NCBI GenBank assembly: GCA_000004695.1
Contig: CM000151.3
Coordinates: 7,392,001-7,456,000, forward strand
Direction: 5' to 3'
Length of the DNA: 64,000 nucleotides
Source of the DNA: Dictyostelium discoideum
Taxonomy: Eukaryota
Positions 4,138 to 47,800 of the stretch are shown here, in pieces. A program made the translations under genes and the position numbers. Numbering within the stretch: the stretch's first letter is position 1; every line of letters starts with the position of its first letter. The notes under the pieces are model-generated. The model was not told the DNA's origin and did not search any database. It saw only the letters and a program-made list of their open reading frames with translations.

Positions 4138-4180
<43 letters not shown>

Positions 4181-10621: not shown

Positions 10622-10655
<34 letters not shown>

Positions 10656-10780: not shown

Positions 10781-11413
10781 ATGAAACAACAACAATATTT
10801 ATTATTATCTCCAATTTTAATAATAATATTATTTATTAATATTATTAAAGGTGGATATGTTTCAATTCAATATTTTAATAATGATCAATGTGATCAAGTT
10901 AATTTTATAAATTATTTTTTGGAAGGTTCTTGTGTTCAAGAACAAGTTATGAAATGTAATTCCGATAAATCAATGATTGAATATAATATTTATGAAAGTT
11001 GTTCAGGTAATCAAGAACCAATTGGTACAAAACAAATTCCAACCAATACATCATGTGAAACAAGTGCTGCAATTTATTCATGTATTGATGAATTACCAAA
11101 TCTTTCACCATCAGCTGATGAAAATAATTTTGTAACAACAGTAATTTTCAATGGTAGTGATTGTTATAATTATAATATTAATAATATTCAATATGTTGAA
11201 CAACAACCAACTGGTCAATGTGATTATGATGGTGCTTTTGGTTCAATTATAACTTGTACACCAACTAAATTCATTAAACAAAGATATGAAGGTTCAAATT
11301 TTTGTATAAATCCACCAACTAATAATTATACTTATACATTACCAATTAATGATTGTTCATTTAATGGTTATAATATTATACAATTTTGTAATTCACCATC
11401 ATCATCTTCTTAA
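10781..11413 (+). CDS. Secreted Cys-rich, Asn-rich protein; tentatively ponticulin-like family
   Basis: An N-terminal signal-like hydrophobic stretch (LLLSPILIIILFINII) is followed by a spaced-Cys pattern of the Y..Y..DxxC....GSC type seen in Dictyostelium ponticulin-like proteins. There is no C-terminal hydrophobic GPI signal in this ORF. The family assignment is from memory only. Confidence 0.4.
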   Translation: MKQQQYLLLSPILIIILFINIIKGGYVSIQYFNNDQCDQVNFINYFLEGSCVQEQVMKCNSDKSMIEYNIYESCSGNQEPIGTKQIPTNTSCETSAAIYSCIDELPNLSPSADENNFVTTVIFNGSDCYNYNINNIQYVEQQPTGQCDYDGAFGSIITCTPTKFIKQRYEGSNFCINPPTNNYTYTLPINDCSFNGYNIIQFCNSPSSSS

Positions 11414-11619
11414 AAAAAAAAATTAAATAAAAAAAAATTATAAAAAATTAAAAAGATATTTTTTTTTAAAAAAAAAAAAAAATTTATATTTATCCATTCG
11501 TTTTTTTATTTTTATTTTTTTTTTTTTTATTTTTTTTTTTTTCGTCTAAAAAACATTTTTTTTATTTTATTTTTTTTATTTTTTTTTATTTTTTTTTTTT
11601 TTAATTAATAATTAAAGAA

Positions 11620-13092
11620 ATGTTAAATTTACTATTTAAACAAACTAATTTTATAAATAAAATATCAAAAAATATTCAAAATAATAATATAAATTTAATA
11701 AAACCATTATCAATAAATTATTTAAATTTATTTTCAAATAACAATAATAATAATAATAATAATAATTTTATAAATGTAAATAATATAAATAATAATAATT
11801 TTAAACAAATATATAGTAATAAATGTTTTTTTTCAAATAAAAAAGAAAAAAAAATTAAAAAAGAAAAACAATCGATTTTAAGAGAAAAAAGTAAAAAAAG
11901 AAAACTTATAATTGAAAATACAGATATAAAATCATTACCAAAATCAGATTTAATTTATGGTCAAACAAATGAAGATTTAAAAAAGTTAAATTATATTATT
12001 GGTGAAAAATCAGCAAAAAGAATAAAAGAATCAACAAGAGCAGATTGGCATGTAAGACAACAACAAAATAAAATATCATCATCATCGACAAATTATTTAT
12101 TATTAAAATCTAAATTATCAAAAGATTTAATTAATGCACCATTATCAGAAACTCTAAAAATTAAAAAACAATTAGAAGAATTAGAAAAGAATGGAAAAAT
12201 ATCAAATATTGATCCAAATTCAAAGAATCAAAAATTTAAAAATCAACAATTTGATCCAAAACAATTGGAAAAACTTAAAGAATTAAAATTGGGTAAATTT
12301 AAACAAAATAAACCAAAAAGGGGTACAACAAAATTGGAAACCATTAAAAAAGAAGTTTCAAAAGGTATTGAAAGATTTTTTGATTCAAAAATGAAATTCA
12401 TTGGTGCTGCAAAGAATATAGATTCATTCCTCCCTGAAACTCTACCAGAGGTCGCATTCATTGGTAGAAGTAATGTTGGTAAATCAAGTTTAATCAATGC
12501 ATTAACTCAACGTGGTTTAGCCAAAACTTCAGATAAACCTGGTCAAACTCAGAGTATAAATTGGTTTGAATTAGGTTCAACACTTTATTTAGTGGATTTA
12601 CCAGGCTACGGTTTTGCATTTGCCAAAGAGACATTGGTTGAACAATGGAGTGATATTACTATTCACTATTTAACCGAACGTAAATGCATTAGTTGTGTTT
12701 TCATATTAATAGATTCACGTCATGGTTTAAAAGATAGTGATCGTAATTTACTATTGGAATTGGATAAAAAGAAAATTAAAACTCATATAATCCTAACAAA
12801 AGCAGATTTAACAAAACCAGAAGATCTTGTAAAAAGAATTTCAATCACAAATCAAGAGATTCAAACCAATTATCGTTATTCAACAACACCAGTACTACCA
12901 ATTAGTTCTAAAAATTTATCTGGTATCTCTGATCTATCAAAATTAATTAAAGTTATGAAATTAAAAGTAAAACCAATTAAAATTAATCCAAATTTACAAT
13001 CAAAACAAATTTTATCACCACAAGATTTTCAATTAAAAAAATTAAAAAATCTGGAAAAGAAAAAAGAAAAATTAAAAAAATTAGTTAAATAA
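11620..13092 (+). CDS. EngB/YihA/YsxC-type ribosome-biogenesis GTP-binding protein with a long Asn/Lys-rich N-terminal extension (probably organellar)
   Basis: The G1 motif is FIGRSNVGKSSLINAL. The G3 motif is LVDLPGYGFA. The G4 motif is TKADL. All sit in EngB order and spacing. Confidence 0.8.
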   Translation: MLNLLFKQTNFINKISKNIQNNNINLIKPLSINYLNLFSNNNNNNNNNNFINVNNINNNNFKQIYSNKCFFSNKKEKKIKKEKQSILREKSKKRKLIIENTDIKSLPKSDLIYGQTNEDLKKLNYIIGEKSAKRIKESTRADWHVRQQQNKISSSSTNYLLLKSKLSKDLINAPLSETLKIKKQLEELEKNGKISNIDPNSKNQKFKNQQFDPKQLEKLKELKLGKFKQNKPKRGTTKLETIKKEVSKGIERFFDSKMKFIGAAKNIDSFLPETLPEVAFIGRSNVGKSSLINALTQRGLAKTSDKPGQTQSINWFELGSTLYLVDLPGYGFAFAKETLVEQWSDITIHYLTERKCISCVFILIDSRHGLKDSDRNLLLELDKKKIKTHIILTKADLTKPEDLVKRISITNQEIQTNYRYSTTPVLPISSKNLSGISDLSKLIKVMKLKVKPIKINPNLQSKQILSPQDFQLKKLKNLEKKKEKLKKLVK

Positions 13093-13267
13093 ATAAATTT
13101 TTTTATTTTTTAGATTTTCAAAAAAATAAAACAAACGTTATTAGTGTTGTTTGTCAAAGTTGTCTTAAATTTTAGTTTTTTTATTCGCACAAGTTTAATT
13201 ATTATTATTTATTATTTATTATATTTAATATTTACTATTATTTATTATTATTAATTATTATTTTAAA

Positions 13268-14350
13268 AAAATTATTAGGTATGTGCATACTATAGCCAAG
13301 CTGCTGGTGGTGATTTTGTTTTTTTGGGACCAAACAATGGTAGCGTACCTCACCACGGCAAAGATGGATTAACATTTACATGCATAACCTCGGAATTGGA
13401 AAATGATTATTTCAATTGCCTAAGATATACCACAAATGTAATGTATAGATACAAATAAATCACTACAGAACCATTCATTAATTTTTATGCCGACAGCAGC
13501 CTCAGGGGCAAATGTATCGTTATCATCACAGTTGAAACACCTGGTATATGTCAAGAAAGTCCAAACTGTTCAAAAATTCATGGAACATCACGTGACAAGT
13601 ATAGTGGTTGGTGTACTTATGATGGTAATACAAAAGGTTTAAATTGTGATCAATTAAATGCAAATATATCATCAGTATTAACACCAACAATCAGTGGTGG
13701 TGATGTTATAATAAATGGTGATTTTTCATCAATTTATAATATTAGTTCAAGTATTACAATTTCAATTGGTACTTCAATTTGTAATAATATTAATTTCTCA
13801 AGTAATAAATCACAAATCATATGTACAATTGGTGAAGGTGAAGGTTATCAACAAATTAAATTATCAGATGGAAATGGTGCAACATTAATATACCATGGAT
13901 TTTATTATGGTAAATGTAATGATCACATCGGTAATTGTAAAACTTTAAATTTACAATTAGATTCAGTAACACCAACATTTGTAACTGGTGGTCAAGTTTA
14001 TTTAAAAGGTAATTTCTCAAATGTTAAAGATCTTAGTCTAACTATTAAAATCGGTGATCTAGAATGTTCAAACGTTAAATTCAACGATACTAATTTCAAA
14101 GTTTTACAATGTTCAATTGAACAAGGTGAAGGTGTCAAAGATATTATAATATCATCTGGTCTATTATCATTTTCAAAAGAAAAAGCATTCGAATATCAAT
14201 ACTAGAAATGTCCACTCGATTGTTCAACACCAAATGGTACTTGTAATGTTAAAACTGGCAATTGTGCATGTAATAATGAACATTTCGGTGATAGTTGTGA
14301 ATTTATTCAATGTCCACTCGATTGTTCATCACCAAATGGTAATTGTGACA
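13268..14350 (+). pseudogene. Gene fragment or pseudogene of an IPT/TIG + tenascin-type EGF repeat cell-surface protein (Tgr/Tiger-like or ComC-like family)
   Basis: A ~240-codon open frame (13480..14203) has no in-frame ATG. It encodes IPT/TIG-like segments such as ...TPTISGGDVIINGDFSS...ICTIGEGEGYQQIKLSDGNGA...TPTFVTGGQVYLKGNFSNVKDLSLTIKIGDLECSNVKFNDTNFKVLQCSIEQGEG. A TAG stop follows. Two EGF-like repeats then read KCPLDCSTPNGTCNVKTGNCACNNEHFGDSCEFIQCPLDCSSPNGNCD. Upstream there is no room for a 5' end before the EngB gene. Confidence 0.5.
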
Positions 14351-14900: not shown

Positions 14901-14941
<41 letters not shown>

Positions 14942-15006
14942 AAAATAAATAAATAAATAAATAAATAAATATAACCCACGTACATATAATAATAATAATA
15001 ATTATA

Positions 15007-15041
<35 letters not shown>

Positions 15042-15170
15042 TATTACAATAATTTATTTATTTTTATTTTATTTTATTTATTTTTGATAAGAATGCGCTA
15101 TAAATATCAAATGTAAAAAAAAAAAAAAAAAAAAAGTTTTATATTCCCTCTTTGAAATTAAAAAATTAAT

Positions 15171-15806
15171 TTATTCTTCTTCTTCTTCAATAACAAAATC
15201 TTCAGGAGAATAAATAACTTTTAATAATAATGAACAACTTGGGCAAATTGCAATTTCTTCACCTTGTAAAATTTCTTCTTCTGTAATTCTAAATCTATCA
15301 CCACTATAATTAATTATAAATAATATTATTAGTTTATTATATTATTAAAAATAAATAAATTTCTAGAGTTTTTATAAATATAAATATATAATATAAATAT
15401 AATAAACATACCATGGACAAGGATAATAAAAAATACGTTCATCTTCATTGAAATCCATATCCTCAATATCAATTTCATCATAAAATGAAGTTGAATCAAG
15501 TTTTGTTGTATATGCTATAATTTTTGGTTTACCATCTGGTGTAACTAAATTATTAATTTTTGCAGCCATTGCAGCACTAAGGTTTGTAAATCCAGATGAC
15601 AATGTTTCTTCTTCATTATTATTATTATTATTATTATTTAAAGGTTTAGGGTTTATTGAATTTGTTTCTTTTTCTGTATCTGTATTATCATTATTATTAT
15701 TATTATCATCTTCTTTGATTTCTATATTTTTTATTTCACTTGTTATTTTTTCAACAATATTTTCATTTTTATTTTCATTATTATTAATATCTTCAGATAC
15801 TGTCAT
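15171..15806 (-). CDS. dph3: Diphthamide biosynthesis protein 3 (DPH3/KTI11, CSL-type zinc finger) with a long Asn-rich N-terminal extension; complement(join(15171..15303,15412..15806))
   Basis: The spliced product ...FYDEIDIEDMDFNEDERIFYYPCP|CGDRFRITEEEILQGEEIAICPSCSLLLKVIYSPEDFV matches the DPH3 consensus (YPCPCGDxFxIT...CPSCSL.I.V.Y). The intron runs from a GTATGT donor to a tatAG acceptor and is 108 nt. Confidence 0.8.
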
Positions 15807-16512
15807 TATGTGTGTATATTATATTATTTATGTATTGGTTTTGTTTTTATTTTATTTTTTATTTTTTATTTTCCTATTAATTTTTAAATCGTTAATTTTT
15901 TTTTTCTAATTTTTTAAAAAAAAGGGATTAAAAATAAAGAAATAAATTATATCGCCAAACGTTTTCTTGAGAAAATAAATATAAAAATAAAAAAAAAAAA
16001 AAAAAACGAACGTTAGGATGAAATTTTTTTTTTTTAATTTTTTTTTTTAATTTTTTTAATTTTTTTTTTTTTTTTTTTTAATTTTGGGTAATTAAAAAAA
16101 TTAATTAATTAAACGGAAGTGAGTGAATTTACAATTGGATTATAATATTGACAATCTGAGCATTCAACATTGTTTAAAATTTTATAAATAGATTTTTAAA
16201 AAAAAAAAAAAAAATTTAGAAAAAGAGAGTTAAAACAAATAAAAAAAAACACAGAACAAATTAACTTTGAAAAAGGGTAGAAATTTCATGAAAAAATGTA
16301 ATGTATGAAAGCAATATTTCTTCGTTACAACAGTATAAAATGTAAATTAAAATATTATTATTATTGTTATTGTATGTTTTATTATGATATTACTCAACAA
16401 TATAATTAAATAAATTATTAAAATTAAATAAATAAATAAATATTAAATTAAATTATAAAAGTTAAATAAAATAAATATGAAATATATAAATATAAATAAA
16501 TAAATAAAAAAA

Positions 16513-16571
<59 letters not shown>

Positions 16572-16794
16572 ATTAAATTAATAAATAAAATATAATTCAA
16601 GTCCTTCTAGAGTATACCACTTTTGTTACAATTGGTGGCAGGGCAAAATTCTGTATTTCATTCAATTTCATCGGTATTCAATTTCATTTCATACATTCAT
16701 TTTAGTATTCGTCAGGGTATTTTTTTTTTCAACGAGTAAATAAATAAATAATAATATATAATAAAATAGAAAAAAAAAAAAAAAAAAAATTAAA

Positions 16795-17329
16795 ATGTCA
16801 AATAAATATTTTACTTTCTCAGGTGAACCAGACACCATAGTATTTTCCCAGTTTTTGGTTGGTTACAAATTATTATATAATGAACATTCAAAAAGCAATT
16901 TTTTCAAACACTTAAGAGGTGATGCAGCATTATTGTTCATTGGGAAGACCACCGATTCAAATTCATTAGATGATATAATCAATGTTCATCGATCTATATA
17001 AACAAGGGAGTGTCACTCCATTAGAGAAATTAATACATTTTCCGAAATCAAGATTCAATAATTTGCAACAATTAATTCACATAGTTAAATCAAATGTTGC
17101 AAACGTTACAGAACCAGAATTAGTTCGTATTTATACTGAATCTCTTCCACCATATTTAGATTCAAAATGGAGAAGCAAAACATCAGATCGATTGTTGATG
17201 CCATTGATTTGTCAAGAAGAATAGAAATTGCATATATCAATAGAGATGGTAGATCATTATTCAATGGTCAAATAGATAATTCAAAATTCACAAATTACAA
17301 TTTAAAATTAAATAATATTAATATTATCA

Positions 17330-17427
<98 letters not shown>

Positions 17428-18531
17428 TTTAATAATAATTATGAATCTTCTTACTCATCTACAAAATTTCAATCAATTCCATCAACAAGATATATAAGTA
17501 ATAATAACAATTCAAACTATAATAATAGAAATAATAAATATAATAAGATCAAATAATAATTTTGATTCAAATAGAAATTATAACTTCAGTTCAAATTATA
17601 GTGATTATAATAACAATAGTTATAACAATTATAGTAATAAAAATAATTATAACAATTATAATAATAATAATTTTAATAATCATAACAATTTTAATAATAA
17701 TTTTTACAATAATCATAAAAATTATTATATTAATAATAATAATAATAAAAATAATTATTATTATTATATCAATAACAATAATAAAAATAGTAATAATATC
17801 AGATTTAATAATAATGGATTAAAATGCCTTAATTGTGGTAGAGTAGGTCACATACCATTAAATTGTTGGATTAGCAAAAATAATAATAACCACAATAATA
17901 AAAATAATTCAATTAGAGATGAGGAGGAAACAATGATGATAATAATGACATCAATGATAATAACAATTATGATAATAATGAAAACAATAGTCCTTATCCT
18001 GTTAGTTCAATTAATGTATTGGGAGGTAGATTATTGGCAACATTAAATATTTTTGGTAAACCAATTAAAGGCTTAGTAGATTCTGGTTCTTTGTTATCAA
18101 TTTTATGGTCAAGTGTTGCAAAGCAATTAAGTTTACAAGTAATTCCAAAGAGAGTAAAGTTTACAACAGCATATGGACAAGAAATTTATTCAACTGGATC
18201 TGCAGAAGCAATTGTTAGTTTGGGTACAGCAATCAATAATTGTGAATTTATCATAGTTCAAGATAAAGTATTAAATGATAGTTGTATCTTTGGGTTGTCA
18301 GTATTGAAGAATGTAGGTATCAATATAGGAATCTGTGAGAATAACATTTACTGTCCTAAAACTGGTGGTAGTCAAGCATTAGAAACCAAATATGGAGGCT
18401 TTGCACAATCAATATGTAGTTTGAAGCAATCTACATCGGAAAATATCGATGATGGTGAAACTAGATTAAATCATGTTGATGCTCTTTCAAGAAATCCAAT
18501 TAACGATATACAAGATTTTAAAATAAAATAA
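16795..18531 (+). mobile_element. Remnant of a Ty3/gypsy-type LTR retrotransposon (Skipper- or DGLT-like): a frameshifted gag with a CCHC zinc knuckle, then an aspartic protease ORF. It is truncated before RT and integrase.
   Basis: Three consecutive + ORFs (16795, 16982, 17167) lie in different frames. A C-X2-C-X4-H-X4-C knuckle, KCLNCGRVGHIPLNC, lies at about 17826-17870. The protease ORF 18019..18531 contains LVDSGS (the D-S/T-G active site). A poly(A) run at 18570-18620 ends the fragment. Confidence 0.55.
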
Positions 18532-18572
18532 AGATTGTATATTATAATTAGACTAGGCCTATAAAATTTATT

Positions 18573-18623
<51 letters not shown>

Positions 18624-19297
18624 AATAAACAAATAAATGATGGATTTTATTTATTTTTTTACAACAAAAATAAACCTTTTTTTTAAACAATTTATTTTTA
18701 TTAAAAAAATACACCTTTAAATATTTAAAACATTGATTGTATTTAAATTAAAAATGATTAAAACACTAATATATTAAAAAAAAAAAAAAAAAAATTCACC
18801 AAATTCTGGTGGATCAACCTCACTTAAGATACATCTTTGCAAGTTGATTGGTTGGTTAATTGTATTTTATCAAATGAAATACCTGTATCTTGACCTATTA
18901 ATGAAATTGAAGAAGCATTATTTTCATCATAAGCGACTATATACTCATCAATAGAATTAATTTGGCTTGGGTGTTTTTTTCTAACAAACTCAAATTTTAT
19001 ATAGAGACCATCATTCAATGTAAATTTAGGTATTTGATAATTTGTAATCCATCTTCCCACCCATTTTCATCGACTTCTCCCTTATTCATAATTCTTCATA
19101 TTAATACATCTTAATTACCCGTAATTGACAAACCAATTGGTTAGTTATTTATTGGATATAGTTATTTACTTCCTCTAGTTCAAATATTTGGTTCTTGATC
19201 CCTTGATAAAAGTAATAATAATAAAAATGGGGGAAATTTTTACCCTTTTTAAATTAAAACCAAGGAAAATAAAAAAAAAAAAAATTTATTATTATTA

Positions 19298-20584
19298 TTA
19301 TAAAAAAGTAACTGAAATTAAATTTGGTAATTTTAATTGTTTTAATTGATATTTAAAATAACTTGGTATTGTTAAATGAGTGATATTAAAAATATCAGTA
19401 ATTGAATGATTGAAATTTAAACCTAATTTTAAGTAACGAATAGAGGAAGGAATATTTTTTGATGAAATTGAATGATTAAAGTATTTTCCTAAATCCAATG
19501 TAACAACAGATGATGGTATTGAATTTTCCAATAAAGGTTGATTATAAAAATCAAATGAAAGATTTATAACAGAGTTTGGAATAACAAAAGGTGAAATTTG
19601 ATAACCATAGAAATCGATATGTAATGTTGTAATTGATGTTGGTATCATACCAATTGGAATTTGCAATGGTAAACTACCTTTTAAAAATAAATCAACAACT
19701 GTTAATGGAATCGAACCAACTTTTATACATTTACTATTTCGTAAATGTATTTTAAGTTTTTTTATACTTGAAGGAATTATAATATCTTTACCAAATACTA
19801 AACTTGAATTTAAATTTCCAGAAAATTCCAATATACTACAATTAATTGGTATTAGATTTTGGTCAGCATCATCACCACCACCACCTACACTACCATCACC
19901 ACCAACACCACCACCACCACAAAGTGATTGATTAAATTCATTTGAAAATATTAAATGATTTAATGATTTTGGTAAAATATTAATATCTAATTTATGATTA
20001 TATAATTTCCCCATATCTAAAAAAGTGATTGAATTTGGTAATGAATTTGGAATTAAAGATTGATTTAATGAACCTAAATTTAAAGATTTTAAATTAAGAG
20101 GTAAATAATTAACTTCAATTTGATGATTATAATAGTTTCCAAGATTTAATTCAATTAATTGAGTTAATTGATTTAAAACATTTGGTGATTGTAATTTTAA
20201 ATTTCCAATACCAATTAGATTTGTTAAAGATTTTGGTAAATCAAAAACTTTTAATATTTGAGAGAATTTAACACCTAAATAAAGAGTTTTGATAGAGTTT
20301 GGTAGTATTCCCTCTTCCAATGGTTTATTAAATTCTTCACCTAAATTTAAATACTCTAATTGAGGTGGAATTGAACCATGAATCAATGCTTTATTAAATA
20401 TACTACCGAGTGAAAGTTTTTTTAAAGTAATTGGTAGATCACCTGGTTTAATCTCTTCATTAAATCTATTATAATGTGTAAAATTCAATTCAGTTAATGA
20501 TAAACAATGACCAAGTTCAATTTTCCTATCATAGCATTGCATTATTGTTAATGATTCTATTGAAGAGATTGAAATGATTGGCAA
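19298..20584 (-). CDS. FNIP-repeat protein (3' portion of an FNIP gene). The first ATG is at 20542; the track's 'M' at 20584 is TTG.
   Basis: The ~22-aa FNIP units (LPxSIxxLxFGxxFNQxI) repeat many times, for example IPNSVINLSFDFYNQPL and IPSSIRYLKLGLNFNHSI. The N-terminal 'SIESLTIMQCYDRK' is encoded by the 46-bp segment duplicated at 25081-25126. Confidence 0.75.
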   Translation of the reverse strand: MPIISISSIESLTIMQCYDRKIELGHCLSLTELNFTHYNRFNEEIKPGDLPITLKKLSLGSIFNKALIHGSIPPQLEYLNLGEEFNKPLEEGILPNSIKTLYLGVKFSQILKVFDLPKSLTNLIGIGNLKLQSPNVLNQLTQLIELNLGNYYNHQIEVNYLPLNLKSLNLGSLNQSLIPNSLPNSITFLDMGKLYNHKLDINILPKSLNHLIFSNEFNQSLCGGGGVGGDGSVGGGGDDADQNLIPINCSILEFSGNLNSSLVFGKDIIIPSSIKKLKIHLRNSKCIKVGSIPLTVVDLFLKGSLPLQIPIGMIPTSITTLHIDFYGYQISPFVIPNSVINLSFDFYNQPLLENSIPSSVVTLDLGKYFNHSISSKNIPSSIRYLKLGLNFNHSITDIFNITHLTIPSYFKYQLKQLKLPNLISVTFL

Positions 20585-37758: not shown

Positions 37759-38262
37759 GGCTTTTCCAACCTCTTTCCAATCCACTTGGAAAGACTTGAG
37801 TTGGAATCAACAAAAACAACTAAATCTTGATAATATGACAACTAAAATGATGATAAACAAAACACAACCAAATACACACCACACCAAAGATGATACTAAA
37901 AACCAAAATACAAAAACTCACTACCACCAACACCACCAAAAAATAAAAAAAGAAGAAAAACAAAAAAAATATTTGTCTATAAAAATAAAAATAAAAATAA
38001 AAGTTCTGTTCAAAAAAAAAAAAAAAAAAAAACGTTAAAAATAAAATTGTCTTTGAATATTCCTACCTATTTTATTTGTTTCATACTAACACCATTTGTC
38101 ACATTTTAATCAACGAGTAAACGCCAAAAAACAACGGTTTTCTCTAATTATTTAACACTTTTGTTATTGGAAATCGATTCCCACCAACTCTGGAATATTC
38201 CAATTTTAAAAAAAAAATTAACCAAACATGGGTTTTGGCTAAATTTAAAAAAATTTCAAGAT

Positions 38263-38358
38263 GGGGATGTAGCTCATATGGTAGAGCGTATGGTTTGCAT
38301 AAACAGCAACGATAATCAGAGTTCCATAAGGTAAAGGGATCGATACCCTTCTTCTCCA
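38263..38358 (+). tRNA. tRNA-Ala(UGC)-like gene with a ~23-nt intron 3' of the anticodon; G3:U70 present; weak T-loop (possible pseudogene)
   Basis: GGGGATGTAGCTCATATGGTAGAGCG / TATGG-TTTGCA-[intron]-T-CCATA / AGGTA / AAGGG-ATCGATA-CCCTT / CTTCTCC-A compares with human tRNA-Ala-TGC GGGGATGTAGCTCAGTGGTAGAGCGCATGCTTTGCATGTATG... An ex-B box GGTTCGATTCC lies at 38383-38393, about 25 bp downstream. Confidence 0.5.
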
Positions 38359-38382
38359 AAATTTTCTTCATGAAAACGATTA

Positions 38383-38393
38383 TCAATGGTTCG
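38383..38393 (+). promoter_or_regulatory. External B box (ex-B) downstream of the tRNA gene; a TFIIIC site typical of Dictyostelium tRNA loci
   Basis: There is an exact GGTTCGATTCC match to the B-box consensus about 25 bp 3' of the tRNA-Ala copy. A matching copy (GGAGAATCGAACC on +) lies at 42500-42512 next to the inverted tRNA copy. Confidence 0.5.
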
Positions 38394-38428
38394 ATTCCCT
38401 TAAAAGTGTCAATAACCTCACAAGAATC

Positions 38429-41400
38429 TTGGAAAGGAGACTAGACAGAATATACCTTAACAATAGCATAATCAACTACAGCCAATTATACTTAAGGAAC
38501 CTAATCCCCCCAAAAATTAATGACATACCTCTATCAGATCACAACTTCCTATCAACCACCTTCACTCTACCCAACATACAGATGAACAGGCGCAGATGGA
38601 GATTAAAAAAATCCTCAATCCTCTCAAGCATAATGCTTAAGAAAATAGACTTCCTACTTAACGATTATTCAAGGGAGCTGTCATCCAACCATAACTCTAT
38701 TTCCTTCTCTCAACTCAACAGCTTACTAAACAAAATAAAACAACTATACACAGAATTTCAAAAACAAAATGACTACAACAATAAGGCAAACATCAAAAAT
38801 CTAATCTCCCTACTAGAGACAGAATTTAAAGACCAAGCCTTCGCAACCCTTTCAGCAATAAATGAATCTAAAAAAAGAGAAGAACAACTTAAACAAGAAT
38901 TGAACAACTATTGCGAAGAAACCTCACTCAAGTACATCTCCGCGAGAATCAAGAAAAGACACAATGATTTCACCATCAACGCAGTAAAAGATGCACAAGG
39001 TAGAACAATCAACAAACAGGAATTGATCGAAGAAGAATACGTAAAATATTACTCAAATCTTTATGACTACAAAGAAGATGACGCACCATCTCATTATGAA
39101 ATGTTGGAAAATTGGACAGTGACCAGGGACTCAACATGGGACAACCTTGAAAATTGAATTTCACAACACAAGAGATCCTAGAAGGTATTAAAACAAATTG
39201 AACCCACACAAATCTCCAGGCCCAGATGGAATTCCAAACTTATTCTACATAACACACAAAGAAAAACTAGCTCCAATACTGGCCTCAGCATTCAACGACA
39301 CTTTAAGAAATCCTCATCTAATTAGCAAAAATTACAAAGAAGGCCTCATTATCACGATACCTAAAAAGGGAGACCCCGAACTAATCAAAAACAGAAGACC
39401 AATTACACTGGCTAACTGTATATATAAAATCCACTCAAAACTAATAAACAATAGAATAATCCCAATACTAACGAAAGTGATCAACCACAATCAAAAAGGT
39501 TTCGTACCAGGCAGATTCATTATAGATAATATCATATCAATGAACGAATTAATCAACTATTGTAATGATAAAAGAATTAACGGAATAATTACACTATATG
39601 ATTTCGAAAAAGCTTTTGACTCGATTTCACACGGTTCAATACTCAGATCACTACAACACATCAACATTCCAACCAATATAATCAACCTGATAATGAATCT
39701 ACTCACCAAATCTGAAGCAAGAATTGAAATTAATGGTAGAACTACTATACCCTTTGAGATCAAAAGAGGAGTCAAACAAGGAGATCCACTATCACCCACC
39801 CTGTTCGTCCTTGTAATAGAGGCTTTAGCTAGAAAAATTTTACAAGATGACCGAATTACTGGCCTTCCTCTAAACAACAGCAACCACAGAGAGAAATTCC
39901 AAAGCTTTGCAGACGACTCGGCTTCAATGGTCCCAGACTCTCAACAACTTGAATTAGTACTACAACACTTCAATTCATTTTGCAAAGCCACTTCCTCAAA
40001 ACTAAACATCGACAAATCTTCATCAATTCTTATAGGCAACCCAGACAATACCAACCAAAGAATACCAATATCTACAAATCCAGAAAGATACTTGGGATAC
40101 TTCTTCACAGGCAAAGGGATAACAAGAAAAATGCCAGAAATATTAAACACAATAAGATCATCCTTAGTACTATGGAAAACCACTGACTCAACAATCAAAA
40201 CCAAAACCAACATCCTCAAAGCATTCGCACTCTCTAAATTAACCTACTATTCATATGTAGAGAACTTTAAGGAAGAGGAATTAAACCAAATCAATAAATT
40301 GGTCGAATGGTTTTTATCGGCACCTAACAACAAAAATGCTAGTGGATTTCAAGTTATTAATTTAATGAGAACCAAAAGAGCAAGATACCCACTAAATGTA
40401 GGGGGCTGGAACATTTGGAATATAGAATTGAGACAACTGGCGCAGAAACTTTGGATCATAAACCAGTTCATCCTAGCACTAGAAACCAAACAAACAAACT
40501 CATCTCATCACAAAAGCTGGGAATATCAGATCCAAAAAAACAAATTCACATCCAGATACCTAAAAGAAAACTTAGACGAATGGAACAAAATAAGAATAAA
40601 AAAAGCAATCTTCAACAATAATCTCACATCCATAAAAAACGAAAATGGACGACCACTTTCACTGGCAGAATGGTATACCACAATTCAAGACCAAAATCCA
40701 ACCATCCCTAAAACGGAATTCCAATCATCTCTAAACTTAAGAGGCTACAGCTATAATCAACTCTTCAACAACATACTGAAGATAAAAGACCCTAAAACAA
40801 GAGACACAATGTTTAGATTCCATGCCAGATGCCTTCCAATAAACTACCTTCACAACAAACAATGCCCACTCTGCAAAGAAGATATGAGCAAAGACCCATA
40901 CGGTCACCTGTTCTTCTCATGCAAGAAAACAAAACAATTCATAAAAATAAATAAACTCAAAAATTTCATCTATATTACCACAGGCAAAGGTAAAAACTGG
41001 CACCATACAAGAATTAGGCAAAATAACAATTTCATTAATAGAATAACTCCAAAATTATCACCGATAGCCAAAAAAGATCAAGAAGTGAATGCAGATTACG
41101 CCAACCTCAGATTCCACAAAGAATACTTTGAATGGAACTATAAAGCAATAGACTATGATCTAACTAGATCATTCGCATATAGAAACCTAATGGCCCTTAT
41201 CCTCCACAACATTTGGATTTGGATTTGCAATCAAATATACAGTGAAGATCCTTTAACAGATGAATCACTATCATACAGCTCCCTTCTAAAGAAATGGCAC
41301 AAATTGGCCACTCTAGAATACATCAAAAAAGCAAAAGATCTGAAAAACTTATCAGCAAAAGACCATAATAACTTCAAAGATCCTAAGATCCTTCTCACTT

Positions 41401-41589
41401 CAACGATCAAGCTAAGAAAAACAACAGCTAATTACTATTGTATTCCAGAATCATCTCTCCCAAATATTATATCTTTTGATCAATTCATATGATTAAAATA
41501 ACCCTTCAGCTTAAATGATAAGCCTATAAATAAATATTAAATAAAACTCGTATTAACACAGATGGACATATATCAATCTTGTTAATCTA

Positions 41590-41623
<34 letters not shown>
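38429..41623 (+). mobile_element. 5'-truncated TRE-type (tRNA-gene-targeted) non-LTR retrotransposon: end of the APE endonuclease domain, RT domain, C-terminal Cys/His zinc-finger region, 3' UTR and poly(A) tail. A frameshift lies between 39157 and 39198.
   Basis: ORF 38429..39157 carries ...IPLSDHNFLST... (the terminal SDH motif of the APE endonuclease). ORF 39198..41492 carries the RT motifs NRRPITLANCIYKI, FVPGRFIIDNI, ITLYDFEKAFDSISHGSI, GVKQGDPLSPTLFVLVIEAL and SFADDSA. The C-terminal region reads CPLCKEDMSKDPYGHLFFSCKKT. The poly(A) tail is at 41596-41623. The element starts about 65 bp downstream of tRNA-Ala. Confidence 0.7.
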
Positions 41624-41625
<2 letters not shown>

Positions 41626-42538
41626 AAACTCAACCTTATAAATTGAAAAACTTAACTTAACTGTATCCTCTCAAGTTGAGTGGCGATTGAAATTCAGTCT
41701 TTGAAATGTTTGTGTATGTTTTGTGAATTTCGTCATACTATTCCGCTAATGATCATCCAAAGTTTCTGAAAATGTAGAAACCATGTAAAAAGTAGTCCTG
41801 TTTGAATTTGGAGTTGACTGTTTTTTTAAATATCAGCTGGTATTTTAAATTTAGAATAAAATAAATTCATCAAACGATATTAAATTTGGCAGCATTGATT
41901 CTGGAATTTTATTAGACCAGTGTTTTTCCATTAAACAATAATTAAATGTTTAATTATATTAATTTTAATTTTAAAATAAAAGGAATTTTTATAATTATTA
42001 TTTATTCATTTTAATTATTTTTTTTTTTTTAATGTACTAAATGGATAAATAAAATATTGAAATTGTAGTTAATGAAATAAATTGTTTCAAGAATACTATT
42101 TGGGAGACCCAGATTCTGCAACACAATAAGCTTTGCAAGTTAATTTTCTTAATATATTTTATTAAGGAAATAGTTTGGATCTTTAAAATTGCTTGGATGT
42201 TTTGAAATAGATAGTTTTAAATTGTTTGAATTTTATATATTCATGAGTGTTTATTTTTTTATCCTTTTGTTAAGGAGAGTTCGATATGAAATTATTCATC
42301 TCTAAATGGTCATTCAATATACAGTTGGTTGCAATTCCAAACTCATTTGATATGAATTATTAAGGCCATTATGTTTAATATGAGGTTCGGGATAGGTCAT
42401 AGTTAACAATTTTTTACCCTATTCCGAGTATTCTTTGTGGAATCTAAGATCCTATGGTAACTCATGACCTTATCGATTAAATTCAATCTAATAAATGGAG
42501 AATCGAACCATTGATCACCGTTTTCAGGACAAAAATTT

Positions 42539-42634
42539 TGGAGAAGAAGGGTATCGATCCCTTTACCTTATGGAACTCTGATTATCGTTGCTGTTTATGC
42601 AAACCATACGCTCTACCATATGAGCTACATCCCC
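42539..42634 (-). tRNA. Second, inverted copy of the intron-containing tRNA-Ala(UGC)-like gene
   Basis: It is the exact reverse complement of 38263-38358. Confidence 0.5.
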
Positions 42635-43170
42635 ATCTTGAAATATTTTTAAAATTAGCCAAAAACCATCTTTAGTAAATTTTTTTTTAAAATAAGCCAA
42701 AAACGAATTATTCCAGAGTTGGTGGTCGATCTCCAATAACAAAAGTGTTAAATAATTAGAGAAAACCGTTGTTTTTTGGCGTTCCAATACCAAAATTGTT
42801 AAATAATTAGAGAAAACCGTTGTTTTTTTTGCTTGTTCTATTGTGGGTATCGTATTGATGTGGGTTTGATTTTTTGTCCCAGACCAATAGTATGGCCCCT
42901 GTCTCCTCCCCAAGTAAAAGTGATATAAGCTATTCATATTAAATTTTTATTTGTTTTTTATAATATTTAGTGAGTTTTAAATAAAAAGATTTTAAATTAT
43001 AAAAATAGATTAAATTATTAAATTATAAAATTAAGATTTAAATTAATATGACAAAAGTTATTAAAAATAAATATACGATTAAATCTTTTTTTTTTTTGAA
43101 TTGGATAACGCAATTATTATTTGCTTCTCCTTGAGATGCTAGATCTCATTTTATTTTATTTTTTTTTTTT

Positions 43171-43511
43171 TTACAGGGTCTCTAAAAGAGGGGTTAGTTT
43201 ACTTTTTTTTTTTTTTTTTTTTTTTTGTTTCGAATTTTGAATTGTATTATTACTTTTGATTAAAACATCTTTTTTGTCCAAACTTTTTTCTAAATCTTTT
43301 TTTATTTTATCGTCTGGTTCGTGATTGATGTTTATGACGTATTTGAATTGTTTTTTTTTTAATTGAGTTTTATCCACAATTTCGCTTATTTTTTGTAGGC
43401 ATTTGTGTTGCTTAATATTTGTGGTGTTGTTTGTGATTTTCATTTTATTTTCCTTCTATTTTTTTTATTTTTAAAAATCTGGAAATTTTCTGATTAACTT
43501 GGGGTTCCCAG

Positions 43512-43554
<43 letters not shown>

Positions 43555-43670: not shown

Positions 43671-43744
43671 GTTCGGATGGTGTAGTCGGTTATCACGAAT
43701 CCTTAACACGGATTAGGTCGTGGGTTCGATTCCCGCTCTGAATA
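43671..43744 (+). tRNA. tRNA-Val(AAC)
   Basis: Cloverleaf: GTTCGGA-TG-GTGT-AGTCGGTTA-TCAC-G-AATCC-TTAACAC-GGATT-AGGTC-GTGGG-TTCGATT-CCCGC-TCTGAAT-A. The D arm and anticodon arm are near-identical to metazoan tRNA-Val-AAC. The T-loop is canonical TTCGATT. Pair 1:72 is G:U. Confidence 0.75.
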
Positions 43745-43764: not shown

Positions 43765-45461
43765 GTGTCGTGGGTTTTTAGTTTTGAGGTTGATGGCATA
43801 CCAAAAACGATAGTAGAATTAATAATGAATCTATTAAAAGAAACAACGAATAAGATCAAGATAAATGACTTCCTGGTGGGACACATTACAGTTAACAGAG
43901 GCACAAAACAAGGAGATCCATTATCACCAACAATATTTGCACTTGTAATGGAAGCACTACTAATTGATATACTTAAAGAAATCGAAATTAAAGGATTTAA
44001 ATTATCAGACCAGAAAAGAATCAAGCTAACAGCATTCGCAGATGATATGTCAACTTTCAACAACTCAGCAGAAGAATTAAAATTAGTATTGGATAAAATC
44101 AACAACTACTGTCTAGGTACATCTTCAAAACTTAATCAAGAGAAAACTGTTATGATATGCATTGGTAATATACCACCAAACCTCCCATTTAAGATTAGTG
44201 AAGCTCCAGAAAGATACTTGGGTCTCAATTTCACGAAAGTGGGCCTCAATTCAAAAATCACATCAATCATCAACTCAATCAAAGATAGCTTAAACAATTG
44301 GAAAAGTCAAGCAACTACAATAAGAGCAAAGATGACAATTGTCAAAACATATGCGCTATCGAGATTATCCTACCATCAATATCTAGACTCACTAAATGAA
44401 TCACACATTACTGAACTAAACAATATCATTAAATGGTTCCTCTTCTCCGCAATTAAAAATACATACACAGAAGAACATAAATATAGAACATTAATGACAA
44501 TGGATAGAGCATACGGTGATTGGAAAGAAGGTGGAATTAAGATGTGGGACTTAGGTATCAGACAAATAGCATTCAAAGTTTGGAACATGAATAGATTATT
44601 ACACATTATCAAGATAAAAGCATGCAACATACTACAAGAATGGTATATGGAACAAATCAGCAACAGCAAATATATATCAATTGGATTAAGAGAGATGGTA
44701 GACAGATGGAAAGATTTTAGAAACAACTTTGCACCACAACACAATAAACTAAAATCACTACCTGATTGTATCAAAGGTCAAAACAAAAAGCCACTTCAAC
44801 TTAAAGAAATCTATAACATGTTAATCACTCACAAATACAAATCAATAAGAAAAACAGATGGACAAAAAAATCTAATTTCAATAAATAACATCAACATACC
44901 ATCCATCTTCCAACATATCAACCACATATCACATCAAAAAGGTAGAAATACACTATTCAGATTTTTCTCAAGGTCACTTCCTGGAATCAACTATGAACGT
45001 AACGTACCATGCAAAATCTGTAACAATATAATCCGTGACCCATACACTCACCTTTTTATAGACTGTATGCAAGTAAAAGAAATAGAAAACATAATAATTT
45101 CAACATTCAACAATCTCTCATTCTTCAAGATCAGAAATTGGGATCTCAATTCACTAGATATTAGCAAAACAAATAAAAAAGAAAGAATCTACCCAAATTT
45201 AATCGGCATAATTATACATCAACTATGGAGAATAATTTGTCACAAACTATTCAATCAAGACGAATCTAAAACTCCACCCTCATTTGATCCAACATTAATT
45301 GAAAAAGAACTAACCAACTTAATTAAAATAGAGAAATTCATTTTAATAAAGAAGATTGAAAGGAATGAAACAATATACAAATTAAATAACAGAGACCAAT
45401 TAATAATCAACTTCAACACATCATGGCATAACCCGAACACTCCAAACCCAATTCCACTATA

Positions 45462-45500
<39 letters not shown>
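43765..45500 (+). mobile_element. 5'-truncated TRE-type non-LTR retrotransposon (second RT-family member) starting about 20 bp downstream of tRNA-Val; ends in poly(A)
   Basis: ORF 43765..45462 carries GTKQGDPLSPTIFALVMEALL, LTAFADDMSTF and the C-terminal zinc-finger region CKICNNIIRDPYTHLFIDC. The poly(A) tail is at 45463-45500. Confidence 0.7.
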
Positions 45501-45619
45501 AAGTAGTAGTAATCATAATATAACCAAAAATATCAACATATAACAATATAAAAATTTAAAAATTTAAAAATCTAAAAATTTAAAAATGTAATAAAATATA
45601 ACAATACACCGCTTTTAGG

Positions 45620-46267
45620 TAAAAAAAAAAAAAAAAAAGTTTTGAGGTTGATTAATTCATTGATGTTGATGATGTCGGTGAGATACAACACAGCAATACC
45701 CAAAGTATTCATAAACATCAACAGCATTTCTCACCAAAAAGGTAGAAACACCCTCTTCAGATTCTTCTCAAGATCACTTCCAGGTATCAACCACGAAAGA
45801 GACACCAGATGCAAGATCTGTGGCCACCTATTCAGAGACCCTTATTCTCACCTCTTCACTCTATGCCAAGATATCCTTGATATTGAAAAAACCATCATAT
45901 CAACAGTTAACAAATTATCATTCATCAAAATCCACAGATGGTCAATGGATACCTTAGACATATCAAAATACAACAGAACTGAGAGAATCTTCCCCAATCT
46001 CATAGGAATAATAGCACACCAATTATGGAAGATAATCTGTCACAAATTGTTCAACACTGATGAAAGCAAACCAGAGCCAAAATTCGAACAAAAGGTCATA
46101 GAAACAGAATTACTAAATCTCATCGAAACTGAAAAATTCATCACACTAAAGAAAATCAAACACGACGAAGCAATACTAAAAAACACCAATCAAGATCTTC
46201 ACAAATACAAATTCAACAAAGCCTGGCAAACCCCAGCAGCTCCGAACCCTCTTCCAATTTAAGTAGT

Positions 46268-46320
<53 letters not shown>
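45620..46320 (+). mobile_element. Short 3' fragment of another TRE-type element of the same family as 43765..45500, with poly(A)
   Basis: ORF 45642..46262 is about 80% identical at the protein level to the C-terminus of the preceding element (ISHQKGRNTLFRFFSRSLPGIN...CKIC...PYSHLF...IGIIAHQLWKIICHKLFN). A poly(A) run lies at 46268-46320. Confidence 0.7.
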
Positions 46321-46326
<6 letters not shown>

Positions 46327-46439
46327 TATAATATAGTTTAAAAAATTTAATACAATTGAATAATAAAAATAAAACCGTTTAACAAACACAGCCGAAAAGA
46401 CACAAGGACATTCCTTGAAGGTCTGATCACAGGTAAAAA

Positions 46440-47340
46440 AAAAAAAAAAAAATTGATGTTGATGATGTTGTCTATGATGAATCTGTGGGGTACGAAACCA
46501 GTTTGGTTGTTGTTGATGATGAAAGGAAGTATTCTCAGAAGACGTGCATTTATTACTTTTGAGGATCTTGTAATCAGTGTTTAGAAGTGTGATGGGACGA
46601 CGATTTGATATGAGTAAGGGGTTGCCTTTCTTATATATTGTGTGTATAAGACCTTCGGTGAATTCTGTTGTGATGTGGTGAGGGTTTTCTAGTATATCGT
46701 TGAATAATGTAGTGAGAATTGGTTTAACTTGGTTTAAATGATTAATGTAGAATGTATTTGTAACGCCACCTGGACGGGGTGATTTGTTGGAGTTACAGGT
46801 TTTAATTGCAGCTTCAACTTCATCTTGTATAAATGGTGAGTCTAAACCATTCCAATAATCATTTTTAATGATGGGCCATGTGTTTAGCATGTATTGGTGA
46901 GTAATTGGACAACATATTTGTAAGGTATATAGATTTGTGTAGAATTCAACAAACGCATTTTCAATTTGGTCGGGGTCGGATGTAATGATGTTACCATATT
47001 GGATTGATTCAATTTTTGCATCTTTTGATCTTTTGTTTAGTATTGCTGATAGATACTTGCTAGGTATTTCTCCATTTATATGTTTTTTTAATATGTTTGT
47101 GTGGTTTTGATGTAGTTTGTTTTTGTTACATATAATATTGTATTCAGGGATGCATTGTCCTTCAAGATGTTTGAATTTTGCTGCTTTTTCTAATAGTATT
47201 TGTTTTGCACGTTGAGTTTGTTTGTCTTTGTTATATTGATAGTTTTTTAGAGTTTTAATAATTTTAGATTTTACTTTTGACCAATTTGTAAATTGATTGA
47301 TTGATGTGTTATTGTGATAATATTCCACTACCACCAACAC
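46440..47340 (-). mobile_element. Minus-strand fragment of a TRE-type non-LTR element (post-endonuclease linker plus the start of the RT domain), truncated
   Basis: ORF 46213..47340 (-) carries ...FYINHLNQVKPILTTLFNDILENPHHITTEFTEGLIHTIYKKGNPLLISNRRPITLLNTDYKIL. This parallels YITHKEKLAPILASAFNDTLRNPHLISKNYKEGLIITIPKKGDPELIKNRRPITLANCIYKI in element 38429. Confidence 0.6.
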
Positions 47341-47518
47341 TCAAAGAAATCTACTCGACAATACTCAACAATCACAATGTAAATCAAAGACTATAAAGGC
47401 AAGAAATATACAGATCTACTCCTTCGCACCAACAATCAATACAACTATTATGGAAATACACATGCACCAACTATTTGTCAAAATTCAAAAATTAAAAGAT
47501 CCATAAGGCCGTGATACA

Positions 47519-47800
47519 ATGCAAAGATTCCATGCTAGATGTCTTCCAATTAATCATCTACACAACAAAGTTTGCCCCATTTGCAACAATGAAATGAATA
47601 ATGATCCCTATGGCCATTTGTTTTTCAATTGTCAGTACACAATCAATTTCATAAACCATGACAAATTAAAATATTTTATATATAAAAATTGCAATGGAAA
47701 CAAAAACTGGTCATTAACAAAAAACAAAACAACAAAATTATCAAATTTTAGAGTATTAATTTATATAAAAAAAACTTTTGTTTTAAAAGTCGATTATTAA
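47519..47800 (+). mobile_element. Small fragment of the C-terminal zinc-finger region of a TRE-type ORF2
   Basis: MQRFHARCLPINHLHNKVCPICNNEMNNDPYGHLFFNCQ compares with MFRFHARCLPINYLHNKQCPLCKEDMSKDPYGHLFFSCK at about 40810. Confidence 0.6.

Follow-up and report, generated by a model that had tools for sequence, protein, structure and literature searches.

Pairs and triplets of tRNA genes with the same anticodon were described as a feature of the Dictyostelium discoideum genome when its sequence was published (cited in PMC8163159), and S2 Table of PMC5391098 shows many such pairs. One of the loci that we sampled (L004) also has two convergent ThrAGU genes separated by 405 bp. All eight AlaUGC genes in the S2 Table are 96 nt long, and no other type of AlaUGC gene is listed there. 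External B boxes are reported at 66-80% of D. discoideum tRNA genes (PMC3159450, PMC5911963). Retrotransposons of the TRE3 family insert 40-150 bp downstream of a tRNA gene and in the same orientation (PMC5911963), and a working B box is required for the targeting of TRE5-A (PMC3159450).

The window analysed here is a stretch of 64,000 nt on chromosome 2 of D. discoideum AX4 (7392001-7456000). For AlaUGC-2, AlaUGC-3 and ValAAC-8 (3/3 tRNA genes), the published positions differ from those in the window by exactly 7,392,000. ValAAC-8, a neighbouring tRNA-Val(AAC) gene on the + strand (43671..43744, chr2 7435671-7435744), was identified with the Rfam tRNA model and by its published coordinates and served as the third coordinate anchor. 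Two blocks in opposite orientation are of interest in the window. The tRNA-Ala(UGC) genes that they carry are the already catalogued AlaUGC-2 and AlaUGC-3; the genes, the intron, the external B box and TRE3 targeting have all been catalogued for the D. discoideum genome. Very probably, the blocks hold bona fide nuclear genes that form a convergent pair, each with the standard Dictyostelium Pol III layout, and both have been landing sites of TRE3. In this layout, the gene has an internal A and B box and a canonical 23-nt intron, presumably removed by splicing; a T-run terminator follows, and the external B box begins 30 nt after the gene. Since the inverted repeat consists of catalogued, probably functional Ala tRNA genes with the usual external B box and TRE3 debris, it is ordinary for D. 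discoideum.

AlaUGC-2 lies at 38263..38358 on the + strand (chr2 7430263-7430358) and matches an entry of the S2 Table of PMC5391098. AlaUGC-3 (NC_007088.5.tRNA46), also matched by coordinates, lies at 42539..42634 on the - strand (chr2 7434539-7434634). The two genes are 4.2 kb apart at present and are identical over all 96 nt. The initial annotation had described a tRNA with the G3:U70 pair and a 23-nt insertion at the canonical intron position, and had asked whether the fold would be accepted. The description was confirmed: with introns allowed, ARAGORN called both copies tRNA-Ala(tgc) with a 23-nt intron, which occupies 38300-38322 (+, canonical 37/38 position) in AlaUGC-2 and 42575-42597 (-) in AlaUGC-3. 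The Rfam tRNA model also accepted the fold, scoring each copy at 49.1 bits against a gathering score of 29 and covering the full model (1-71). Reading of the sequence showed the Ala identity pair G3:U70, the discriminator A73, the T loop ATCGATA and the anticodon UGC. T-runs act as terminators of Pol III, and a T4 run (38362..38365, +) in copy 1 and a T5 run (42531..42535, -) in copy 2, both beginning at +4 after the gene, are the presumed terminators. The 3' trailers differ between the copies (AAATTTTCTTC and AAATTTTTGTC).

TabS3 of PMC8163159 (LOTTE-seq) gives the mature AlaTGC sequence and has chr2 7434538-7434634 (-) among its genes. Removal of the 23-nt intron from the gene in the window yields exactly this mature sequence. 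The spliced, CCA-tailed AlaUGC product was recovered by tRNA sequencing at the level of the isodecoder, which is common to 8 genes (PMC8163159). Compared with the family AlaUGC-1 to -8 (dictyBase), of which the two copies are members 2 and 3, the coordinates, the 96-nt length, the 23-nt intron and the mature sequence are the same. Nothing differs at the gene level, but the two copies share a private single-base G in the intron: both read CAGAG, where CAGAC stands in the family primer and CAGAT in the sister species. The pair also resembles the dozens of same-anticodon pairs in the S2 Table of PMC5391098, in that its members are identical and lie within a few kb of each other on the same chromosome. 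Among 7 copies from four species, the exons were 100% identical, while the intron differed at 1-2 nt and the flanks diverged. This indicates that the Ala(UGC) exons are under purifying selection.

The T loop had been read as degenerate in the initial annotation. The sequence ATCGATA was given correctly; its degeneracy did not hold, because this loop is standard for the tRNA-Ala genes of D. discoideum. The T loop AUCGAUA occurs in every cytosolic tRNA-Ala of D. discoideum, including the 15 intronless AlaAGC genes, and in human tRNA-Ala-AGC-10-1, so we regard it as normal and not as a sign of decay. The T arm and the acceptor stem of Ala(UGC) are common to the AlaAGC genes and a human tRNA-Ala, and the T arm GGGATCGAT(A/G)CCC is the same as in this eukaryotic tRNA-Ala with an A54 T loop. 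From the supposed degeneracy came the idea that the copies are TFIIIC-binding decoys, which thus rests on a misread T loop; the copies are identical to the sequence that yields the expressed isodecoder. In its full form, the idea would make the copies decaying pseudogenes with a crippled internal B box that persist only because TFIIIC binds their external B box; like the ETC sites of yeast, they would serve as chromatin boundaries or as landing pads for retroelements. The internal B box GATCGATAC does have two mismatches to GTTCRANYC and no upstream GTC signature, whereas the external box agrees with the consensus, and tagged TRE5-A never integrated at AlaUGC-3. Nevertheless, we consider pseudogenes very improbable. 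The same internal sequence is carried by 8 AlaUGC and 15 AlaAGC genes with sequenced products and by the human tRNA-Ala, and the exons stay unchanged in four species while the flanks drift. The Rfam score is far above the threshold, the single non-canonical pair, U6-U67, is common to AlaAGC, and the published table offers no other type of AlaUGC gene. ETC-like sites, that is, B boxes without an intact tRNA gene, were considered as a class, and both copies here are intact genes. A false lead is thereby removed, namely that of a degenerate T loop and of genes serving as decoys.

The external B box is GGTTCGATTCC in copy 1 (38388-38398, +) and GGTTCGATTCT in copy 2 (42499-42509, -). It had been called perfect in both blocks. 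Both boxes fit the consensus GTTCRANYC of PMC3159450, but the 11-mers are not identical. Each box begins 30 nt after the gene, beyond the T4/T5 run. Consensus fit and a position a few tens of nt downstream are as reported for 66-80% of the tRNA genes of Dictyostelium, while the start at +30 compares with a reported mean of about 41 bp. The window holds 5 occurrences of the motif GGTTCRANYC, where 0.97 would be expected, and 0/100 shuffles gave as many. Of the 7 copies from the four species, 6 have a box that begins at +30 or +31, and one D. citrinum copy has no box. The 29 nt between gene and box drift among these species.

The repeat of about 300 bp in two opposite copies proved to be real, with a length of approximately 280 bp. 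The block at 38120-38398 (+) is found again, inverted, at 42499-42828. One pair of arms (38205-38397 / 42500-42692) is 193 nt long and 94% complementary, and the other (38120-38177 / 42726-42783) is 58 nt long and 98% complementary. As a single gapped alignment, the blocks gave 287 columns with 89.9% identity (E = 3.5e-109). Upstream of the gene, 143 bp of flank are duplicated; downstream, the duplication continues through the external B box. In copy 1, inverted-repeat arms and gapped alignment place the upstream flank at 38120..38262 (+, 143 bp, one 51-nt unit). In copy 2 it covers 42635..42828 (-; direct-repeat family D3, inverted pairs I2 and I3) and holds the 51-nt unit twice in tandem (42732-42777 and 42783-42828).

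The copies had been said to bracket a 5'-truncated TRE element. This is true of the + strand, where a 5'-truncated, TRE3-type non-LTR retrotransposon of 3.2 kb occupies 38410..41623 (RVT_1 E = 6.6e-34; comparison with full-length copies). It contains the end of the endonuclease domain, the reverse transcriptase, the zinc finger, whose Cys/His motif was read in the ORF2 translation, and the 3' UTR, and it ends in an A29 tail (41595-41623). It corresponds to nt 2041-5247 of a 5247-nt full-length copy and shares 99.4% and 98.7% identity with the full-length copies in L004. The matching entries in the protein database were all named 'hypothetical protein'. The element begins 51 nt downstream of AlaUGC-2 in the orientation of the gene, which satisfies the 40-150 bp rule; full-length members of the family begin at +69 and +76 after other tRNA genes. 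Thus ORF2 with RT and zinc finger, poly(A), orientation and distance all agree with the TRE3 family, while the 5' truncation and the missing target-site duplication set this copy apart. No convincing target-site duplication was found at the large element, whose 5' flank CTTAAAAGTGT and 3' flank GAAAACTCAACC share at most AAAAG, whereas the full-length copies in L004 have duplications of 11-12 bp. This points to a deletion of the target or a later rearrangement and not to another kind of element.

On the opposite strand, TRE3 pieces in the last 0.87 kb ahead of copy 2 had been overlooked; these belong to the second gene. The first is an internal fragment of ORF2 that lacks both ends and covers about aa 488-524 (41642..41752, -; tblastn identity 59% to the TRE3 ORF2 of the window and 77% to P0008); it adjoins the 3' flank of the large element. 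A small 3'-end fragment follows at 41855..41907 (-) and is 79% identical to nt 5069-5121 of the full-length copy. The third is an old 3'-terminal fragment with an A13 tail (42021..42451, -), matched by tblastn to ORF2 aa 636-733 and by blastn to nt 4736-4902 and 5063-5123 plus the A tail. It lies downstream of copy 2 in the orientation of that gene, and its 5' end falls within 42451-42498. The TRE parts at the two copies share approximately 70% DNA identity and 42-56% protein identity and have different truncation points, which indicates independent insertions and not one duplicated unit. Of the two alternatives first proposed, the data support the first: a pair of tRNA gene copies whose flanks are conserved, with retroelements targeting each copy. 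In vivo, tagged TRE5-A integrated at AlaUGC-2, although with only 22 pseudoreads in a single library, and at AlaUGC-3 in 0/3 libraries, counts that the authors call not quantitative (PMC5391098). As TRE5-A requires a working B box, the hits at AlaUGC-2 are in favour of a functional gene.

The other proposal, that the elements mobilised the block, found no support. The retroelement machinery could have copied the block by 5' transduction, with one read-through transcript that starts in the upstream flank and runs across the tRNA gene and its external B box into TRE3. A second route is a template switch of the TRE3 reverse transcriptase onto a pre-tRNA; template switches onto small RNAs are known from the U6/L1 chimeric retrocopies. 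Each copy joins a 5'-truncated TRE3 of the same orientation within 0-50 nt of the external B box, which superficially looks like a small-RNA/LINE chimera, and the intron is kept, as in a precursor transcript. However, the block spans -143 to +40 of the gene. Starting 143 bp upstream and ending 40 nt downstream, past the T4-5 terminator, it does not have the ends of a Pol III transcript. Transduction predicts a full-length 5' end of TRE3, and the TRE3 parts here start at nt 2041 and about nt 4700; they are also only ~70% identical, against 90-98% for the blocks. No target-site duplication bracketing block and TRE was found at the locus, reading of the sequence revealed neither an A tail nor a target-site duplication of the block, and its upstream part had no further copy in the tRNA and TRE loci that were sampled from dictyostelids (135 kb). 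Copying by either route is hardly credible to us. A tRNA-derived SINE or chimeric retrocopy was also rejected as a class on these grounds: no transcript ends, no A tail, no duplication, and no extra copy of the upstream part in the 135 kb.

In the sister species, the Ala(UGC) gene is retained together with its intron and external B box, but the copies are arranged differently. The pair is direct in D. citrinum, divergent in D. dimigraforme and convergent in D. discoideum. What is added here to the pairs described before is the measured extent of the duplicated flank and the differing orientation among sister species. In D. firmibasis, one Ala(UGC) copy was found in the 22 kb covered. Synteny with the sister species stops near 38030. 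These data bear on the age of the pair. It could have existed before the split of the D. discoideum group, with gene conversion keeping the copies alike and inversions or deletions altering their orientation; the 94-98% identity of the flanks would then reflect conversion and not a recent duplication. Two Ala(UGC) genes are indeed present at the locus in both D. citrinum and D. dimigraforme. Within a species, both copies share an intron variant (TAAAAAGC...GATT in D. citrinum, ...GAGT in D. discoideum), as expected under concerted evolution, and exactly 26 nt of 3' flank is common to the two D. citrinum copies. Against this, conversion tracts normally create no homology in unrelated flanks, so the 143-bp upstream identity still needs a duplication at some point. 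The single copy of D. firmibasis (within 22 kb) also speaks against an old pair. With respect to the repeat at 43090-43197, the second copy sits at different places in D. discoideum and D. citrinum, an observation that independent duplications and rearrangement explain equally well. We assign a minor share of the probability to an old pair kept alike by conversion.

The copy beside the LARP1-like gene, which is the syntenic one, is very probably ancestral. A local DNA-level duplication of about 280 bp is the most likely source of the second copy, and both Ala genes would then have been used as landing sites by TRE3. The intron variant CAGAG, private to the two copies, and the frequent same-anticodon pairs of this genome are in favour of such an origin. 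The large TRE3 lacks a target-site duplication and adjoins a 3'-truncated TRE3 fragment of opposite orientation, which indicates that the locus has been rearranged. For this reason, we can only infer the order of events. Old TRE3 fragments may have built up downstream of AlaUGC-3 first. Later, the young TRE3 would have inserted 51 nt past the end of AlaUGC-2, a step in which target DNA was probably lost and which would have increased the spacing of the genes from about 0.9 kb to 4.2 kb.

The locus illustrates in detail the layout of a same-anticodon tRNA pair and its retroelement debris. Its arrangement is not the same in three sister species, and the tRNA genes stand at the joints of the rearrangements; the pairwise homologies of the copies all stop at or just beyond the 3' edge of the external B box, except for the boxless D. 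citrinum copy. The joints, together with the strict +30 position, could inform the study of what role external B boxes have. We suggest, as a rather doubtful idea, that the external B box of tRNA-Ala genes may be selected and fixed in position instead of passive. It could offset the non-consensus, A54-type internal B box, and bound TFIIIC could mark the point at which the TRE3 insertions of this locus, its duplications and its inversion breakpoints all start.

Human tRNA-Ala genes are not known to contain introns, whereas the UGC isoacceptor of Dictyostelium carries one. The non-consensus internal B box of the A54 type is common to all Dictyostelium tRNA-Ala genes.

The inverted duplication of the tRNA-containing block, which the initial annotation had read from the sequence, is real. 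In this very AT-rich window the repeat finder returned two pairs of inverted arms, one of 193 nt (38205-38397 and 42500-42692; 94% complementary) and one of 58 nt (38120-38177 and 42726-42783; 98% complementary). As a single gapped alignment, the two blocks shared 89.9% identity over 287 columns. The 143-bp flanks upstream of the plus-strand gene AlaUGC-2 and its minus-strand partner AlaUGC-3 were identical at 131 of 140 aligned bases. A 51-nt unit of this flank, CGCCAAAAAACAACGGTTTTCTCTAATTATTTAACACTTTTGTTATTGGAA, was found by the repeat finder once upstream of AlaUGC-2 and twice in tandem upstream of AlaUGC-3 (42732-42777 and 42783-42828), and the tandem copies are 96% identical. No counterpart of the flank occurred in 135 kb of sampled TE-rich loci, and an origin as a TRE5 or DGLT-A remnant was set aside on this ground.

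The Rfam tRNA model gave 49.1 bits (gathering score 29) for each of the two genes, AlaUGC-2 at 38263-38358 (+) and AlaUGC-3 at 42539-42634 (-), which are identical over all 96 nt. The same model placed a tRNA-Val(AAC) gene, ValAAC-8, at 43671-43744. With introns allowed, ARAGORN assigned both Ala copies to tRNA-Ala(tgc) with a 23-nt intron, owing to which its default mode overlooks them. Direct reading of the sequence gave G3:U70, A73, the anticodon UGC and the T loop ATCGATA in both. In S2 Table of PMC5391098, the chromosome 2 positions are 7430263-7430358 for AlaUGC-2, 7434539-7434634 for AlaUGC-3 and 7435671-7435744 for ValAAC-8; published minus window position is exactly 7,392,000 in all three cases. 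These exact matches place the window at 7392001-7456000 of AX4 chromosome 2 and identify both "tRNA-like" copies as genes already in the catalogue. In that table each of the eight AlaUGC genes measures 96 nt, which makes the intron a trait of the family. The AlaUGC family PCR primer (S1 Table of PMC5391098; as reverse complement, CAGACTTCCATAAGGTAAAGGGATC) reaches from the intron end into the start of the T arm, with A54; against the window copies it has one mismatch, in the intron. The 3' trailers are copy-specific (AAATTTTCTTC for AlaUGC-2 and AAATTTTTGTC for AlaUGC-3). The MFE fold of the 96-nt precursor showed no clean cloverleaf and was no better than shuffled sequences (z = -0.32); it was set aside because the covariance model accommodates the intron and is therefore the fitting test. 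A scan of metagenome contigs with exon 1 gave no match.

A mature spliced Ala-UGC product is present at the cluster level in LOTTE-seq data, which capture CCA-tailed tRNAs (Table S3, PMC8163159). The mature sequence of the AlaTGC cluster, GGGGATGTAGCTCATATGGTAGAGCGTATGGTTTGCATCCATAAGGTAAAGGGATCGATACCCTTCTTCTCCA, equals the window gene without its 23-nt intron, and the gene list of the cluster includes NC_007088.5 7434538-7434634 (-), which is AlaUGC-3. The T loop had been called degenerate. The 15 intronless AlaAGC genes in the same table end in an identical 3' sequence, AGGTAAAGGGATCGATACCCTTCTTCTCCA, and human tRNA-Ala-AGC-10-1 carries GGGATCGATGCCC (PMC10620816). The T loop is of the same type in all of these, so it is normal for tRNA-Ala and no sign of decay. 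The U6-U67 mismatch that Rfam flagged in Ala(UGC) is also present in AlaAGC. Orthologous sister-species loci (n = 3) were obtained with the neighbouring LARP1-like gene as anchor. Across seven copies from four species the Ala(UGC) exons are 100% identical, the introns vary at 1-2 bases, and the flanks diverge fast. TRE5-A targeting depends on a working B box (PMC3159450). Tagged TRE5-A insertions (S2 Table, PMC5391098) were recorded upstream of AlaUGC-2 (22 pseudoreads, one library) and never upstream of AlaUGC-3, in counts that the authors consider non-quantitative and that include no hit at all for about 15% of tRNA genes. The normal T loop, the sequenced mature product and the invariant exons argue against the idea that the copies are TFIIIC decoys. 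Nothing points to pseudogenes or decoys, and each of the two genes is putatively transcribed.

External B boxes lie at 38388-38398 (+) for AlaUGC-2 (GGTTCGATTCC) and at 42499-42509 (-) for AlaUGC-3 (GGTTCGATTCT). Both start 30 nt after the gene, beyond a T4 or T5 run. Such boxes are reported for 66% of D. discoideum tRNA genes, at a distance of about 41 bp on the downstream side (PMC3159450); another review gives about 80% of tRNA genes (PMC5911963). Other tRNA genes of the fetched loci carry it as well (Thr at +25 and +29, Ile at +37), which indicates that the feature is typical. In the sister species it stands at +30 or +31 in all five box-bearing copies and the bases between gene and box vary; the box is gone from one D. 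citrinum copy. The window contains five matches to the motif GGTTCRANYC where 0.97 would be expected. Two of the five, at 19708-19717 and 20368-20377 (-), are coincidental. They lie within a repetitive coding ORF of 428 aa (19298-20584, -), where the motif falls on Gly-Ser-Ile-Pro codons, and no tRNA is near.

The retroelement between the two genes is a 5'-truncated non-LTR element of the TRE3 family at 38410-41623 (+), named here at family level since database names are uninformative for the subfamily. It contains the end of the endonuclease domain, RVT_1 (E = 6.6e-34) and a zinc finger, and its tail is A29. Two full-length copies in tandem (ORF1 and ORF2, 5247 nt) from another D. discoideum assembly match it at 99.4% and 98.7% identity, and it corresponds to their nt 2041-5247. 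Homology to these full-length elements begins only at 38410, which rules out the block as part of a TRE consensus. The start of the element lies 51 nt downstream of AlaUGC-2 and 11 nt past the external B box, and its orientation is that of the gene. This distance agrees with the known rule, as it falls within the TRE3 insertion window of 40-150 bp (PMC5911963); for the full-length relatives it is 69 nt (after a tRNA-Asn) and 76 nt (after a tRNA-Thr). Whereas those copies have clear 11-12-bp target-site duplications, no convincing one was found in the flanks of the large element (38399-38409 and 41624-41641). This was the sole failure among the defining features tested. Its 3' flank abuts a 3'-truncated TRE3 ORF2 fragment of opposite orientation. 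The absent duplication together with this fragment suggests a target deletion upon insertion or a later rearrangement, and points to a local deletion, not to another kind of element.

The remaining 0.87 kb between the genes (41624-42498) is not unique spacer but holds minus-strand TRE3 fragments. A 3'-terminal fragment with an A13 tail runs from about 42451 down to 42021 (-), directly downstream of AlaUGC-3. It is joined by a small second 3'-end fragment (41907-41855, -) and an internal ORF2 fragment (41752-41642, -), whose 3' side is cut off where it meets the large element's flank. These fragments share only about 70% DNA identity and 42-59% protein identity with the large TRE3, and they are old, independent insertions belonging to AlaUGC-3. 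Before the young TRE3 arrived, the genes would have stood face to face at a spacing of about 0.9 kb. Target DNA may have been lost when it inserted or in a later deletion, which would account for both the lack of a duplication and the 3' truncation of the ORF2 fragment.

Downstream of ValAAC-8, more TRE-type ORF2 fragments are clustered at 43765-47800 (43765-45462, + with RVT_1; 45642-46262, +; 46213-47340, -; 47519-47800, +). At least two subfamilies are represented, with 33-61% protein identity to the large TRE3. Between AlaUGC-3 and ValAAC-8, a sequence of about 140 bp (43079-43230) adjoins long T runs (43204-43226 and 43512-43551). It recurs as three tandem copies downstream of a TRE3 at 13769-14225 of L004, the locus of the other D. 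discoideum assembly. A minus-strand element upstream of ValAAC-8, possibly of TRE5 type, may have left it as debris.

Pairs and triplets of same-anticodon tRNA genes are known in D. discoideum (PMC8163159), and many such pairs in S2 Table of PMC5391098 are spaced only 0.4-8 kb apart. L004 holds a convergent tRNA-Thr(AGU) pair (15481-15552 and 15957-16028), 405 bp apart, with an external B box at the first gene only (GGTTCGATTCC at +29); its layout matches the Ala pair as it would have stood prior to insertion of TRE3. All four species have the Ala(UGC) copy next to the LARP1-like gene in syntenic position. In D. citrinum (12950-13310 and 19500-19900 of its locus) the pair is direct and 6.5 kb apart. 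There, the shared 3' flank of the first copy, which has no external B box, ends after exactly 26 nt, and the box of the second is immediately followed by a 5'-truncated TRE3. Both D. citrinum genes are preceded by the same sequence of about 110 bp, a possible LTR, which has opposite orientations at the two. In D. dimigraforme (locus features at 8589-8725, 9726-12772, 13637-13775 and 14931-19257) a divergent pair stands either side of the LARP1-like gene and, compared with D. discoideum, the adjacent gene block of 4.3 kb is inverted. The second copy's external B box is directly followed there by the start of a Sof1-like coding fragment. D. firmibasis has one copy in the 22 kb fetched.

We favour an origin of the pair by local duplication at the DNA level. 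Both copies of each species share one intron variant, which fits independent local duplications or, as the main rival, an older pair homogenised by gene conversion. The 143-bp upstream identity of D. discoideum has no counterpart in the second copies of the other species. Copying by retroelements, as had been proposed for the block, is unlikely: the block ends differ from Pol III transcript ends, and the TRE3 parts joined to the two blocks break off at different internal points and are far more diverged from one another than the blocks.

Every component of the locus is of a described class (AlaUGC family, external B box, TRE3, same-anticodon tRNA pairs), and the layout of the Ala(UGC) pair with TRE3 is already known and ordinary for the D. 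discoideum genome. Homologies and TE junctions at the Ala locus stop at, or shortly beyond, the 3' edge of the external B box, and this, with the strict +30 position across species, is its least ordinary residue. Both features are compatible with selection on the external box for a role at tRNA-Ala genes, where the internal B box departs from the consensus, but we consider such selection improbable. Protein searches with the LARP1-like and kinase-phosphatase genes gave sister-species or distant homologues and no D. discoideum protein, whereas the search with the retroelement ORF2 returned many D. discoideum proteins.
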